The notes under the pieces are model-generated. The model worked only from the letters and a program-made list of their open reading frames with translations, was not told the origin of the DNA and ran no database searches. Below are positions 1 to 30,738 of a stretch of 45,822 nt of DNA, piece by piece. This DNA is from Bacillota bacterium. GTDB lineage: Bacteria; Bacillota; Bacilli; Alicyclobacillales; Alicyclobacillaceae. Each line of letters opens with the position of its first letter. Positions within the stretch are counted from its first letter, which is position 1. The translations under genes and the position numbers were made by a program. Location: positions 1 to 45,822 of the forward strand of contig JAJZAV010000001.1 of assembly GCA_021799255.1 (NCBI GenBank). The letters are read 5' to 3'.

Positions 1-407
1 AGCCGGGCATGCGAATCAAAACTGAGTCCGTTACCTCTCGAACGGCCGATGCGACCCTTGCGCCACTGCCTCGTGGAACAAAGTGGGCGCGGATGGATCC
101 AGAACTTCCTCGCAGGTCTATGGGGGTGGTCTTATGGAACCAGGTCCGGATGGAGGTGGGAGCGGATCGAGCGGAGGAGCCGTGGCACCCGATGAAAAAT
201 AGCGCTGGCAGACCGCGCTAATGGGGATCCGCCGGCAGGAACCACGCAGATAGCGCTGCCAAACCGTCTTATGTGGGACGCCGCAGGAGTCGCCAACCAC
301 CATACCCGCGAATAAGGCGGATTGGCAGCGTTATACCGTCACCACCTAAGGTCCATACTCAAATAAGGCGGCCAAACCGCGCTAACTTGCCCCATCCGCA
401 ACGCGAA
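1..407. repeat. Tandem repeat copy A (unit ~406-418 bp, left end cut by window edge), non-coding
   Basis: Aligns end to end with 408-825 (ATCAAAACTGAGTCCGTTACCTC at 15 and 421; identical 75-nt block 212-286 = 629-703). No SD-preceded ORF. Confidence 0.9.
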
Positions 408-825
408 CCCGGGCGTACGAATCAAAACTGAGTCCGTTACCTCCAGCCCCATCCATCGAACGGCCAGTGCGACCCTTGCGCCACTGCGTCGTGGAACAAA
501 TCGGATGCGAATGGGCCCAGACCTTCTTCGCTACCTATGGGGGTGGTCTTATGCAACCAGGCCCGCACGGGGATGGGAGCGGAGCGAGCGGCACAGCCGT
601 GGCACCCGATGAGAAATAGCACGGGCAAACCGCGCTAATGGGGATCCGCCGGCAGGAACCACGCAGATAGCGCTGCCAAACCGTCTTATGTGGGACGCCG
701 CAGAAGTCGCCAACCACCATACGCGCGAATAAGGCGGTTTAGCGGCGTTATACCGTCACCACCTAAGGTCCACACTCAAATAAGACGGCCAAACCGCGCT
801 AAACGAACCAAGACAGCAACGCGAA
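408..825. repeat. Tandem repeat copy B (418 bp), non-coding
   Basis: Starts CCCGGGCGTACGA (408-420), the same junction motif that starts copy C at 826. Its hairpin loop is 12 nt longer than in copy A. Confidence 0.9.
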
Positions 826-960
826 CCCGGGCGTGCGACCCTTGCGCCACTGTTGGGCCCAGACCTCCTTCGCGGCCTATGGGTGTGGTCTTATGAGACC
901 AGGCCCGCATGGGGGTGGGAGCGGGTCGAGGGTAGAAGCGGAAGGAAGCCGCGCCGTTAA
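826..960. repeat. Tandem repeat copy C, truncated and diverged
   Basis: CCCGGGCGTGCGACCCTTGCGCCACTG..GGCCCAGACC..CCTATGGGTGTGGTCTTATGAGACCAGGCCCGCATGGGGGTGGGAGCGG parallels copies A/B. It lacks ~52-nt and ~25-nt internal segments. Similarity fades after ~960. Confidence 0.75.
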
Positions 961-1480
961 CGCCCCTATGGGGAGTAAAGTGGGCATGATGCAGGGCCGT
1001 CATCACAATAGCAGTGCGGCGGGGAGTTAATGGACACCGTTTGGCGGGAGGCCGCATCGTGGGGGCAGAATAACGGTTGAAAAGGGAGTAAACGGCGTGG
1101 GGGTCGATGGACGGAGAGCCGATAACGCCCCAGGGGGGAGCTACCTGGGGGGCCAAGATTTCCGAAGGAAGTCCCACAAGCCTTTGCACCTCAAAACCGA
1201 ACCTGTTACGGTCAACGGCTAATCCGTGATGCAAGGACGGGGCGGGATTGAGTAAAGGGGGGTGAGCCGTGAGCTTGGCAAACGGCCTAACCGAAGGCCC
1301 AGGTGCTGCGCGCGCAACCGTACGCGCAAACGAATTCCCAACCTAAACGATGATACCTCCTCCTCTAGCGCGAAAGCATGTGTTCGCCTGTTGGGATGGG
1401 GAGCGTGTCCGGCGCAGGTTCGCGGGCCGTGATACCACCCGCCAGGTGCAAATACGACGGAGTCAAACGTCAAGGCTGAA
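961..1480 (+). other. Unique GC- and purine-rich non-coding tract continuing from copy C; candidate large structured RNA (class unknown)
   Basis: No credible ORF and no T-runs. Several perfect hairpins (e.g. CCCCAGG 1128-1134 / CCTGGGG 1144-1150) and many GNRA-like loops. G+A excess on the + strand by eye. Confidence 0.35.
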
Positions 1481-8109: not shown

Positions 8110-9189
8110 ATGCGAGAAGATGTGAAACGTGAGACGGCCATAAACAAAATCTTGAGAATGGTTGCGCCGGGAACCATGTTGCGAGAAGGAATTGAAAACA
8201 TCCTAGCCGCCAAAACGGGAGGTCTCATTGTTGTCGGAGCCACCGATTTAGTCCTGACCTTGATAGATGGTGGTTTTCCCATTCAGTGCGATTTGACTCC
8301 ATCCCACTTGTACGAGCTCGCCAAGATGGACGGAGCCATCGTCATCAGCGAGGATGCCAAACGGGTGCTCTATGCAAACACGAACCTCAACCCGGATCAT
8401 ACGATCCCGACGTCGGAGACGGGAACCCGTCACAGAACCGCGGAGAGAATGGCTAAACAGACGGGGCAACTCGTCGTCTGCATCTCCCAGCGCAGAAACG
8501 TCATTACGTTGTATCAGGGGAATTTTCGGTATTCTCTAAAGGACATTGGCGTCATACTCACGAAGGCCAACCAAGCGATGCAGACGCTTGAGAAATACAA
8601 GTCGGTTTTGGACCAAGCGTTGACGAACCTGAGCGCGCTGGAGTTTGAGGAATTGGTTACGCTGCAGGAAGTCCTTCTCGTGTTGCAAAGGGTTGAGATG
8701 GTCTTACGCATCAAATCGGAGATCAAACGGTATATTACTGAACTTGGGACAGAAGGTCGACTCATCAGCATGCAACTGGACGAACTCGTATCCCGAGTCG
8801 ATGAGGAAGCCTATTTGCTCGTCAAGGACTATGCAACGATGGGAACAGAGGATACTCCTCATCACATTTTAATGAGGATTCACGATCTGTCGTCCGAGGA
8901 GTTGCTCGATGGACACATTCTCGCGCACATCCTCGGCTACCCCAACATAGTAACTCCCAGCGACGAGCCGGTTTCATCCAAGGGATACCGTATACTTAAC
9001 AAGATTACGCGGTTGCCTCAGCCCATCATTGAGAATTTGGTGGAACACTTCTCGTCGTTGAACAACGTTCTCGTGGCGACTACAGACGATCTCGATGCCG
9101 TCGAAGGCGTCGGTACTGTGCGAGCAAGAATGATACGCGATGGCCTAAAATGGATACAGGAACAGGTGTTCATAGATAGGCACATCTGA
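8110..9189 (+). CDS. disA: DisA, DNA integrity scanning protein / diadenylate cyclase
   Basis: DAC-domain motifs (DGAIVIS, RHRTAER) and a C-terminal HhH region. Conserved position after radA. Confidence 0.92.
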   Translation: MREDVKRETAINKILRMVAPGTMLREGIENILAAKTGGLIVVGATDLVLTLIDGGFPIQCDLTPSHLYELAKMDGAIVISEDAKRVLYANTNLNPDHTIPTSETGTRHRTAERMAKQTGQLVVCISQRRNVITLYQGNFRYSLKDIGVILTKANQAMQTLEKYKSVLDQALTNLSALEFEELVTLQEVLLVLQRVEMVLRIKSEIKRYITELGTEGRLISMQLDELVSRVDEEAYLLVKDYATMGTEDTPHHILMRIHDLSSEELLDGHILAHILGYPNIVTPSDEPVSSKGYRILNKITRLPQPIIENLVEHFSSLNNVLVATTDDLDAVEGVGTVRARMIRDGLKWIQEQVFIDRHI

Positions 9190-30455: not shown

Positions 30456-30738
30456 CGTCTTGGGGATTGCATGGGTGTGAGTTGGCGGCCGCGCGCGAGA
30501 TGAGATATGACCTTCTCTGTCCTATGAGACGGACGCCAGGTGCATAATGATTCCGGTAGGCTCCCAGAGTTTTCGTGCTCTACGGTGCTACGGGCGACCA
30601 TTAGTGTGCCTGAATTTATTGTGCTCGTCCATGAACCACCAGGCACTGTGGACATGGCGAGATGCGGCGGGTCGTAAAATGACGGCCGGGCTCGGGAACT
30701 CCAATGCCGCCCGAGCGAATTTGGAAGGAGGTGCAGTG

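Follow-up and report, generated by a model that had tools for sequence, protein, structure and literature searches.

What fills the space in front of ctsR in this member of the Alicyclobacillaceae? The window, by which we mean the whole stretch of DNA that was analysed (45,822 nucleotides), carries the operon ctsR-mcsA-mcsB-clpC, headed by ctsR at 1818-2291 on the plus strand, a gene of 157 aa with a TTG start. Upstream of it lies a repeated tract which the original prediction took to be a duplicated structured-RNA or protein-binding module outside any known class. The tandem repeat is genuine: it does not code for protein, is confined to one lineage, and has a small palindromic DNA element as its building block. 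The duplicated, non-coding module of that prediction stands and it matches no Rfam class, but its structured RNA is left without support: nothing that we found speaks for a structured RNA gene, and the tract is best regarded as an ordinary curiosity and not as a new RNA class. A search of the literature retrieved no paper linking ctsR, rRNA operons and tandem repeats, nor one on intergenic tandem repeats of Alicyclobacillus.

The repeat array and its surroundings

Two full copies lie head to tail, unit A at 1-407 and unit B at 408-825, neither assigned to a strand, and the window begins inside the array. End-to-end alignment placed the copies at offsets of 406, 417 and 418 nt. They share 85.8% identity over 431 columns in blastn (E 3e-144), and in the MAFFT alignment 358 of 420 columns are identical, with 28 transitions, 19 transversions and 15 gap columns. 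The 410-nt period was seen by pairwise tools and is absent from the output of Tandem Repeats Finder. Conservation is patchy, as had been described: the 5′ half of the unit is about 84% identical between the copies (38-113 against 456-531), which bears out an earlier estimate of one difference in six or seven positions, and the longest identical run, exactly 75 nt as reported (212-286 = 629-703), stands against an average A/B divergence of 14%. A hairpin with a CCGTT/AACGG stem is present in both copies (28-45 in A and 434-463 in B), and a 12-nt insertion makes its loop 12 bases longer in B. The shortened unit C (826-940, again without strand) restarts at CCCGGGCG (826) and holds only the 5′ half of the unit, lacking two segments of about 52 and 25 nt. 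The larger deletion is bounded by the short direct repeats GTACGA/GTGCGA, in agreement with the T(A/G)CGA boundary noted before. A profile of the unit matched C over 833-940 (E 3.5e-19), and the homology of C stops just short of the first 23-nt palindrome described below. No further copy of the repeat was found by blastn elsewhere in the 45.8-kb window. Among the observations listed in the original prediction the only one that we could not reproduce is the strand scope of its statement on T runs and terminators, to which we return with the RNA evidence.

Between the array and the ctsR promoter lies a unique spacer (941-1482, no strand), G-rich, T-poor and non-coding, which neither resembles the unit nor contains any trace of a Pfam domain or of TetR. 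Its downstream limit is set by the ctsR promoter, TTGCAA-17-TATTAT, which together with a CtsR operator beginning with AGTCAATGATAGTCAAG occupies 1483-1538 on the plus strand and is kept in relatives. The gene order in relatives is 16S-23S-5S, terminator, (TetR), ctsR: their rRNA operon ends in a strong intrinsic terminator, a TetR-family gene occurs at the position of the array, and the spacer that runs from the 5S end to ctsR can be very short, one relative having only about 230 nt from 5S to the ctsR promoter and no repeat. From this synteny we infer that an rRNA operon probably lies upstream of the array in the present genome as well. Every one of the related assemblies breaks in or beside the array, and among the contigs encoding the ClpC of the window or a related CtsR, none from close relatives (CtsR at least 72% identical) continues beyond the array or further upstream than the ctsR region. 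Over 735-1818, a metagenome contig of independent origin agrees with the window except at 3 positions.

Tests for genes, mobile elements and known RNAs

The tract is not coding, and it is not an insertion sequence or a tRNA or rRNA remnant. Six-frame ORF pieces of 1-960, joined as one query, found no match among 5.8 billion proteins, and Pfam searches with six frames of 1-1500 gave two sub-threshold noise matches only. Between the minus-strand ORFs shared by both units (118-303 and 535-720), 8 codon differences are non-synonymous and 4 synonymous, 12 in all, so that the preponderance of non-synonymous changes noticed earlier holds, and the A/B substitutions fall on the three codon phases as 14/15/18, without periodicity. 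Rfam yielded no match at gathering score over the whole window and only three noise matches, to eukaryotic lncRNA/snoRNA models, at E<=10 over 1-1800; no family fits, including OLE, ROOL, GOLLD, HEARO, raiA, 5S, RNase P and tmRNA, which had been named as candidates. ARAGORN detected neither tRNA nor tmRNA. Plasmid and phage collections contained no blastn match to 1-1480, three motif scans of viral contigs were blank, and two palindrome patterns had 0 matches in JGI metagenomes. An exact 19-mer kept in all three copies had 4 hits in 185,579 species-representative genomes (Acidovorax, Nocardioides, Pantoea), all in unrelated taxa and about the number estimated from the size of the database.

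The TetR-family gene that relatives carry here, the rRNA operon just upstream in those relatives and the breaking of assemblies at this very place would all suit a decayed gene, an insertion sequence, a tRNA/rRNA-operon remnant or an assembly artefact. This origin is nevertheless largely refuted and we regard it as very improbable. The original prediction had itself set decayed rRNA-operon or IS sequence against its own reading, and no sign of either appeared: there is no rRNA or tRNA model match, the unit profile has no match in the rRNA operons of relatives, no frame gives a Pfam match or a homologue, and no terminal inverted repeats were found. Likewise tblastn with four TetR orthologues found no trace of that gene in 1-1800. 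The units cannot be a collapsed or duplicated read artefact because they differ by 14%, and the independent metagenome contig also speaks against an artefact.

Two further candidates were rejected. In a CRISPR array, short direct repeats that are all identical alternate with unique spacers of about equal length, and cas genes lie near. Here the sub-repeats differ and one is inverted, the “spacers” recur between units, and the neighbours are ctsR-clpC and ribosomal genes. Decoy sites for CtsR were dismissed after scanning for its operator pattern, the tandem heptads RGTCAAA-NAN-RGTCAAA, with up to 3 mismatches: the array has no match, the only plausible site is at 1512-1528, and another at 30506-30522 is at chance level.

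A 23-nt palindrome inside the units

An imperfect palindrome of 23 nt, ATAnCGC-GCCAAACC-GCGnTAT, occurs four times in each unit, giving 8 in the array where 0 are expected by chance. This four-palindrome anatomy had been overlooked in the original prediction. The copies, s1 to s4, are spaced at 51/62/51 nt, and s3 is inverted. In unit A, s1 lies at 199-221 on the plus strand (ATAGCGCTGGCAGACCGCGCTAA; its minus strand reads as a hairpin and then UAUUUUUC), followed by s2 at 250-272 (plus), s3 at 312-334 (minus) and s4 at 363-385 (plus). The corresponding sites of unit B are 616-638 (s1, plus, with a minus strand flagged as terminator-like), 667-689 (s2, plus), 729-751 (s3, inverted, minus) and 780-802 (s4, plus). 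Because one copy is inverted, copies 2 and 3 can pair into a long hairpin, with 250-272 as its left and 312-334 as its right arm in unit A; the arms are 87% complementary and 39 nt apart. The flanks of s1 and s2 are mutually alignable on inspection of the sequence, and a half of about 195 bp in each 410-bp unit is free of palindromes. Outside the array, no copy of the element was found in the 45.8-kb window, and none outside the rrn-ctsR spacer in about 180 kb of relatives' loci. Beyond the instances it was built from, a covariance model made for the palindrome with its flanks (36 nt) matched nothing.

The symmetry of the palindrome is pronounced, 70% of cells pairing against 18-46% when the partners are slid. 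It is held at the level of the consensus without covariation: the covariation score is 0.101, below the shuffle mean of 0.126. The best-conserved bases are those of the centre (the “loop”) and the outer ATA/TAT, not those of the stem. A repeated palindrome that is symmetric at consensus without covariation also makes the protein-binding half of the earlier reading more concrete.

The 23-nt palindrome with its immediate flank is the only part of the unit common to relatives. It was found in two close metagenomic relatives, and Alicyclobacillus macrosporangiidus, where CtsR identity is down to about 60%, still has one copy in this spacer. Local Smith-Waterman scores were 54 for relative L008, in which s4 of unit B is the best-kept piece, and 37 for L009, values reached by 0 of 200 shuffles. 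PWM matches amounted to 27.7 bits in L008, 19.5 in L009 and 21.5 in L016, the last reached by 0 of 5000 shuffles of distant relatives' spacers. Elsewhere in 225 kb the best PWM score was 15.1 bits, a diverged s1-like piece of L008, and the best unrelated one 12.9 bits. By nhmmer and by Smith-Waterman with shuffles, L016, L017, L012, L021 and window 961-1480 have no significant similarity to the unit, and the 23-nt element itself is absent from L012, L017 and L021. Most of the unit is not kept even in relatives with CtsR 92-94% identical; in L008 and L009 the promoter-proximal end of the array is built differently, copies being counted in the array of the window alone. That the 23-nt element is kept better than the unit around it hints that it was selected or mobile and not simply neutral, a point against the reading favoured below.

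Origin of the array and competing readings

The reading that we favour, though tentatively, is that of a nested tandem amplification, non-coding and specific to this lineage, which, by synteny with relatives, would fill the spacer from the 3′ end of the rRNA operon to the ctsR promoter. The seed may have been the 23-bp imperfect palindrome, already present in the spacer of the family. Together with its flank it would have been duplicated with a period of about 51-62 nt into four copies, one of them inverted, copies 2 and 3 making a hairpin of about 85 nt, and the whole block of about 410 bp may then have been tandemly duplicated by unequal recombination or replication slippage. Since then the array would have changed fast, through deletions between short direct repeats, the 12-nt insertion and patchy gene conversion, which could have left the 75-nt identical block. 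On this best reading no role is conserved in the 410-bp unit itself, which is no RNA gene; the whole array would be without selected function, and any activity would sit in the palindromes at the level of DNA, where they would be prone to form hairpins or cruciforms or would be bound by a dimeric protein. The array resembles bacterial VNTRs and minisatellites in its head-to-tail non-coding copies, its indels between short direct repeats and its patchy homogenisation, as well as in a promoter-proximal end that varies in close relatives and a locus at which assemblies break. It differs from them in its long unit with a nested 51-62-nt sub-period and inversion, in copies already 14% diverged and so not those of a rapidly slipping simple VNTR, and in one sub-element kept over a genus-level distance.

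A non-coding RNA, which we consider quite improbable, might be made in two ways. On the plus strand, read-through from the rRNA operon or a promoter that escaped recognition would give a transcript with one s2-s3 hairpin per unit; on the minus strand, either sibling sRNAs or a single long divergent transcript under CtsR control would end at the s1/s4 hairpins with U-rich tails. The local s2-s3 hairpin is the only significant structure in the unit, with z-scores against shuffles of -5.2 and -3.5 as plus-strand RNA and of -3.0 and -1.1 on the minus strand; G-U pairs aid the former and are mismatches in the latter. As plus-strand RNA this hairpin exceeds its shuffled controls in stability by a wide margin, so that a transcribed hairpin keeps some standing. 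The plus strand is unusually T-poor (15% against 23% in the other intergenic DNA of the window), a composition resembling that of transcribed intra-operon spacers. The earlier statement that no T run or terminator occurs anywhere is correct for this strand, on which T runs in 1-1480 reach at most 3 nt and no terminator was found, but not for the minus strand, where weak terminator-like hairpins with T-rich tails accompany the 23-nt sub-repeats: five weak candidates against 2.7 expected, the s1 hairpins having -11.9 and -13.6 kcal/mol (z -1.5 and -2.2) before the tails UAUUUUUC and UAUUUCUC. Promoter-like hexamers on the minus strand overlap the CtsR operator. Against an RNA stand whole-unit minimum-free-energy z-scores around zero (-0.43, -0.62, +0.98 and +0.10, shuffled controls, both strands), an A/B consensus fold with one compensatory pair on each strand, a comparison of low power with two full copies only, the lack of covariation in the 23-nt hairpin and of any promoter-like site within the array, whichever strand is read, the absence of an Rfam match, and the strong intrinsic terminator that closes the rRNA operon of relatives. 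The strand signals also conflict, s1 pointing to minus and s2-s3 to plus, and most of the unit is not kept even where CtsR is 92-94% identical. Tandem sibling sRNA arrays such as Listeria LhrC1-5 and Pseudomonas PrrF1/2 share with the tract intergenic repeats of a few hundred nt, and minus-strand hairpins with U-rich tails occur here once or twice per unit, but the array has no promoter per unit, weak terminators and no conserved seed region, and its units match nothing in Rfam and are not kept in close relatives. OLE, ROOL, GOLLD, HEARO and raiA are alike in being several hundred nt long, non-coding and hosted by Firmicutes; the array differs from them in giving no covariance-model match at E<10, no thermodynamic excess and no covariation, and its unit is not conserved beyond the species.

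In form the array appears closest to REP/REPIN/BIME clusters, to which the BIMEs of E. coli belong as similar elements, and REPIN-RAYT systems have, to our knowledge, been described mainly in Proteobacteria, whereas the host here is a Firmicute. By analogy, the 23-nt palindrome would be one member of a REP family spread over the genome, the s2-s3 doublet would be a REPIN and the array a tandem REPIN cluster. The movement or upkeep of such elements depends on a RAYT, an IS200/IS605-like Y1 transposase whose gene lies elsewhere; we hold this reading to be unlikely. The element is, like a REP, a short (20-40 nt) imperfect palindrome in extragenic DNA, found in both orientations downstream of an operon and kept or spread better than its surroundings, and s2-s3 is an inverted doublet with a spacer, as a REPIN is defined (PMC3116915), and is predicted to form a long, strong hairpin. 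The ordered clusters of Pseudomonas fluorescens SBW25 are likewise tandem repeats of near-identical REPINs with their flanks, up to >700 bp (PMC3116915). What tells against a REP family is that no copy lies outside the one spacer, either in the window or in about 180 kb of relatives' loci, that the single match in A. macrosporangiidus is syntenic and not dispersed, that no RAYT gene was seen within the 45.8 kb, that the conserved bases are central and outermost, and that the unit, with its palindrome-free half, is much longer at 410 bp. A selected protein-binding array, rather unlikely in our estimate, would make the at least 8 palindromes of 23 bp putative operators for a dimeric DNA-binding protein: a regulator of ctsR-clpC, a nucleoid protein or segregation protein acting in this region, or one that the sites would titrate, with amplification raising local occupancy. 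Its outer half-sites ATAnCGC/GCGnTAT are two-fold symmetric and kept at consensus without covariation, as for a DNA site and not an RNA stem, although missing covariation is equally expected of decaying duplicates of one ancestral palindrome. The regular spacing, the presence of the element in the syntenic spacer of a distant relative, and the array's lack of a promoter-like site and of a plus-strand terminator would also agree with binding. There is, however, no candidate protein, the CtsR operator has no match, a distance of about 16 bp between half-site centres is unusual for helix-turn-helix dimers, and the element is dispensable because several relatives (L012, L017, L021) do without it. 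Compared by eye with the consensus sequences of parS, Noc, RacA, LexA, DnaA, cre and Spo0A, the palindrome gave no convincing match.

If the lineage-specific tandem amplification is the right reading, its practical value is small: one candidate for a new large RNA is struck off, the assembly breaks upstream of ctsR in this lineage are accounted for, and a presumably hypervariable locus with a possible use in strain typing is flagged. The wider interest is the 23-nt palindrome, which recurs in the same spacer across Alicyclobacillaceae lineages with CtsR only about 60% identical. It is a candidate conserved cis-element specific to the rRNA-operon/ctsR spacer of this family, doubtful as that may be, either a putative dimeric-protein site or a founder REPIN-like element in a Firmicute, that would here have been multiplied to at least 8 copies, forming a platform for binding or a row of hairpins with a possible effect on ctsR-mcsA-mcsB-clpC expression or local chromosome organisation. 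Should it prove to be a true protein site or a REPIN-type element, it would provide a Firmicute example for a class known mostly from Proteobacteria and might point to an input to the CtsR/ClpC stress operon not seen before.

Anatomy of the repeat array upstream of ctsR

The two full units of the array, A (1-407) and B (408-825), lie head to tail as originally predicted, with start-to-start offsets of 406, 417 or 418 nt depending on the segment. They align by blastn with 85.8% identity over 431 columns (E = 3e-144), and by MAFFT with 358 of 420 columns identical, 28 transitions, 19 transversions and 15 gap columns. Their longest identical run is exactly the 75-nt block that had been claimed (212-286 = 629-703), and the CCGTT/AACGG hairpin recurs at 28-45 in A and at 434-463 in B, where its loop is 12 bases longer. 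The truncated copy C begins anew at CCCGGGCG (826), lacks ~52 nt between GTACGA and GTGCGA plus 25 nt more, and matches the unit profile up to 940 (E = 3.5e-19), with no homology beyond. No further copy was found by blastn elsewhere in the 45.8-kb window. The 410-nt period was detected by pairwise tools and missed by Tandem Repeats Finder. Against an assembly artefact, the copies are 14% different and an independent contig matches 735-1818 with three differences.

Each unit consists of a 5′ half of ~195 nt without internal repeat and a 3′ half of ~200 nt carrying four 23-nt imperfect palindromes, termed s1 (199-221 in A, 616-638 in B), s2 (250-272, 667-689), s3 (312-334, 729-751) and s4 (363-385, 780-802), all in direct orientation except s3, which is inverted. 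Their consensus is ATA-(A/G)CGC-nGCCAAACC-GCGn-TA(A/T) and their start-to-start spacing 51, 62 and 51 nt; a degenerate-pattern scan of the window returned eight sites, all of them s1-s4 of A and B, against 0.00 expected. Since s1 and s2 have flanks that align with one another, the 3′ half is in turn the product of an earlier, small-scale tandem duplication. The 23-nt element is truly palindromic, with pairing in 70% of cells across ten instances and 18-46% in slid-partner controls. Its covariation score (0.101) lies below the column-shuffle mean (0.126), 388 of 500 shuffles being equally good, so that the symmetry is a property of the consensus and not of co-varying pairs. Such a pattern is more in keeping with a DNA site, or with the decay of copies from a single ancestral palindrome, than with an RNA stem under selection.

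The spacer and its counterparts in relatives

Some 540 nt separate the array from the ctsR promoter further downstream (TTGCAA-17-TATTAT, 1483-1511), which is followed by the CtsR operator (from 1512); both are kept in all relatives compared. The ctsR gene starts at 1818 as the first of ctsR-mcsA-mcsB-clpC-radA-disA. The source is a lineage of Alicyclobacillaceae whose CtsR has best named matches of just 64-65% identity. A. macrosporangiidus and A. contaminans share the arrangement lysS, 16S-23S-5S, intrinsic terminator, opposite-strand TetR-family gene and ctsR, while in L021, a metagenome-assembled Alicyclobacillaceae, the 5S gene, terminator and ctsR promoter fit inside ~230 nt with neither TetR gene nor repeat. 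The window starts within the array, and this synteny suggests that the array fills the spacer between an rRNA operon and ctsR. No close-relative assembly spans it: one contig (L001) starts at window position 735, another (L002) inside ctsR, and six (L003, L008, L009, L010, L019, L020) 0.1-0.7 kb upstream of ctsR.

Apart from the palindrome and the sequence immediately flanking it, no part of the unit is common to relatives. L008, whose CtsR is 94% identical, has at its start an s4 copy of 27.7 bits, with a local alignment score of 54 that 0 of 200 shuffles reach, and also carries a diverged s1-like piece. L009, whose CtsR is 92% identical, carries a copy resembling s1 directly upstream of the promoter; this copy has 19.5 bits and a local score of 37, likewise reached by 0 of 200 shuffles. 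The remaining unit is unalignable in both, whereas promoter and leader parts align at 74-89%. In A. macrosporangiidus (L016, CtsR ~60% identical) the 5S-TetR spacer has a single palindrome, ATAACGCGACGAAACCACCTTAT, at 8704-8726. Its score of 21.5 bits is reached by 0 of 5000 shuffles of all distant relatives' spacers, and the best unrelated match in 225 kb of loci has 12.9 bits. Pairwise local alignment shows no significant similarity between this spacer and the unit, so the match there is one of motif alone. The 23-nt element is absent from A. contaminans, A. pomorum and L021, and exact-pattern scans of JGI metagenomes gave no match. A 19-mer of the 5′ half had four matches among species-representative genomes, about the number estimated from database size; these fall in unrelated taxa only, so the source species is not in that collection.

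Several side observations concern this region. The 780-nt 5S rRNA-TetR spacer of A. macrosporangiidus (L016 8249-9028) is repeat-rich, with seven copies of the G-quadruplex-prone GGGGGTGAATG at 8454-8529 and further repeats of 16/34 nt at 8959-9024. In Alicyclobacillaceae, repeats seem to accumulate in the rRNA-ctsR spacer. The ctsR leader (1512-1817, ~300 nt) is A-rich and T-poor with an 18/9-nt tandem repeat, GCCAAAAGGACCAAACGT (1689-1747); its block CTAATGAATCAAGCATCGCGGGAACAGAATGAAGAGGG (~1631-1668), kept in L003, L008 and L009 while the remaining leader differs, may be a regulatory element. A 127-aa ORF overlapping the leader (1483-1866) is not conserved, with an immediate stop in L008. 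The ctsR-mcsA spacer (2292-2442) holds three copies of the 10-nt CGGACAGCGC (2354-2384) within a 16-nt inverted repeat (arms 2341-2356 and 2384-2399, 88% complementary), and this gap is also length-variable, ~290 nt in L009 (1162-1450) against ~150 nt in the window. L003 encodes a ClpC identical to the window's and its DNA is ~98% identical over ctsR-clpC, but its positions 1-93, directly upstream of the ctsR -35 box, are wholly unlike window 1386-1478 and common to L009 80-120, a pattern that points to recombination or replacement at the promoter boundary.

Coding and RNA signals

The tract is non-coding. Six-frame pieces of 1-960 matched none of 5.8 billion proteins, 1-1500 holds no Pfam family in six frames, no remnant of the relatives' TetR gene is detectable at the locus, and the A/B substitutions are without codon phase (14/15/18). 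The minus-strand ORFs shared by both units do differ mostly non-synonymously, as had been noted (8 non-synonymous versus 4 synonymous codons). A tRNA, tmRNA or rRNA remnant was ruled out by the lack of any model or profile match, and plasmid, phage or viral DNA by the lack of a match in those collections. A 152-aa minus-strand ORF with a TTG start (776-1234) runs through copy C into the unique spacer. Since it lacks a Pfam match and is not called as a gene in the metagenome contig L001, it is probably spurious, a by-product of G+C-rich sequence.

The original prediction had proposed a duplicated structured RNA or protein-binding module of no known RNA class. No Rfam family was indeed matched, and for the unit as a whole the evidence is against a structured RNA, since neither A nor B, on either strand, has a fold energy distinguishable from that of dinucleotide shuffles (z = -0.43, -0.62, +0.98 and +0.10). 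Consensus folds of A and B contain one compensatory pair per strand and give no positive signal, two sequences having little power. The sole locally significant structure is formed by s2 and s3, which are 87% complementary and separated by 39 nt; as plus-strand RNA this hairpin reaches -41.8 kcal/mol in A (z = -5.2) and -39.0 kcal/mol in B (z = -3.5), and as minus-strand RNA z-scores of -3.0 and -1.1. The strand signals are at odds, G-U pairing pointing to the plus strand in s2-s3 but to the minus strand in s1. Within the array, neither strand yielded a sigma-70-like promoter. The predicted absence of T-runs and terminators holds on the plus strand (longest T run in 1-1480, three) but needs a proviso on the minus strand, which has weak terminator-like hairpins with T-rich tails. 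The plus strand is T-poor (15% versus 23% in the window's other intergenic DNA), like the window's transcribed intra-operon spacers, a weak hint of plus-strand transcription.

Origin and meaning of the array

Our tentative best explanation is that a palindromic element of the spacer underwent nested amplification specific to this lineage. The 23-bp palindrome, originally resident between the rRNA operon and ctsR, would have been duplicated at a period of ~51-62 nt with one copy inverted, and the palindrome block with ~195 nt of flank would then have been duplicated in tandem. Divergence would have followed through point changes, deletions at short direct repeats (copy C), an insertion (the B hairpin loop) and a conversion patch (the 75-nt block). 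Anatomy, non-coding character, missing RNA signal and narrow distribution are results of the analysis, whereas we infer this order and mechanism, and likewise a lack of function: since the spacer in relatives ranges from ~230 nt to one holding a TetR gene or other simple repeats, such as those of A. macrosporangiidus, the array as a whole looks like dispensable filler.

A REP/REPIN/BIME-type element, of a class marked by dispersal and a RAYT gene, would fit well in form, with its palindrome, inverted doublet as hairpin and tandem cluster with flanks, but is unlikely, no palindrome copy lying beyond this spacer in any sequence covered. Regular spacing, consensus-level symmetry and syntenic conservation of the palindrome are what a selected array of candidate protein-binding sites would show; this is quite unlikely, however, as there is no candidate protein, the palindrome is unlike the CtsR operator and the site is missing in several relatives. 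An RNA on either strand, for which the s2-s3 hairpin and T-poor plus strand speak, is decidedly unlikely given shuffle-like whole-unit folding, absent covariation and promoter, and conflicting strand signals. A decayed gene, an IS or rRNA remnant, or an artefact is largely refuted and scarcely credible.

Tandem REPIN clusters including their flanks have been described in Pseudomonas fluorescens SBW25 (PMC3116915), and such clusters, with BIMEs, are the nearest known systems in form, as VNTRs are in behaviour. We do not class the array in a REP family, because that class is defined by genome-wide dispersal and, in the sequence covered, the copies come from this one spacer. We regard the array as a tandem repeat of intergenic DNA with a palindromic element as its building block, and not as a new RNA class. 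The only point of further interest is the 23-nt palindrome, kept across the family in the equivalent spacer.
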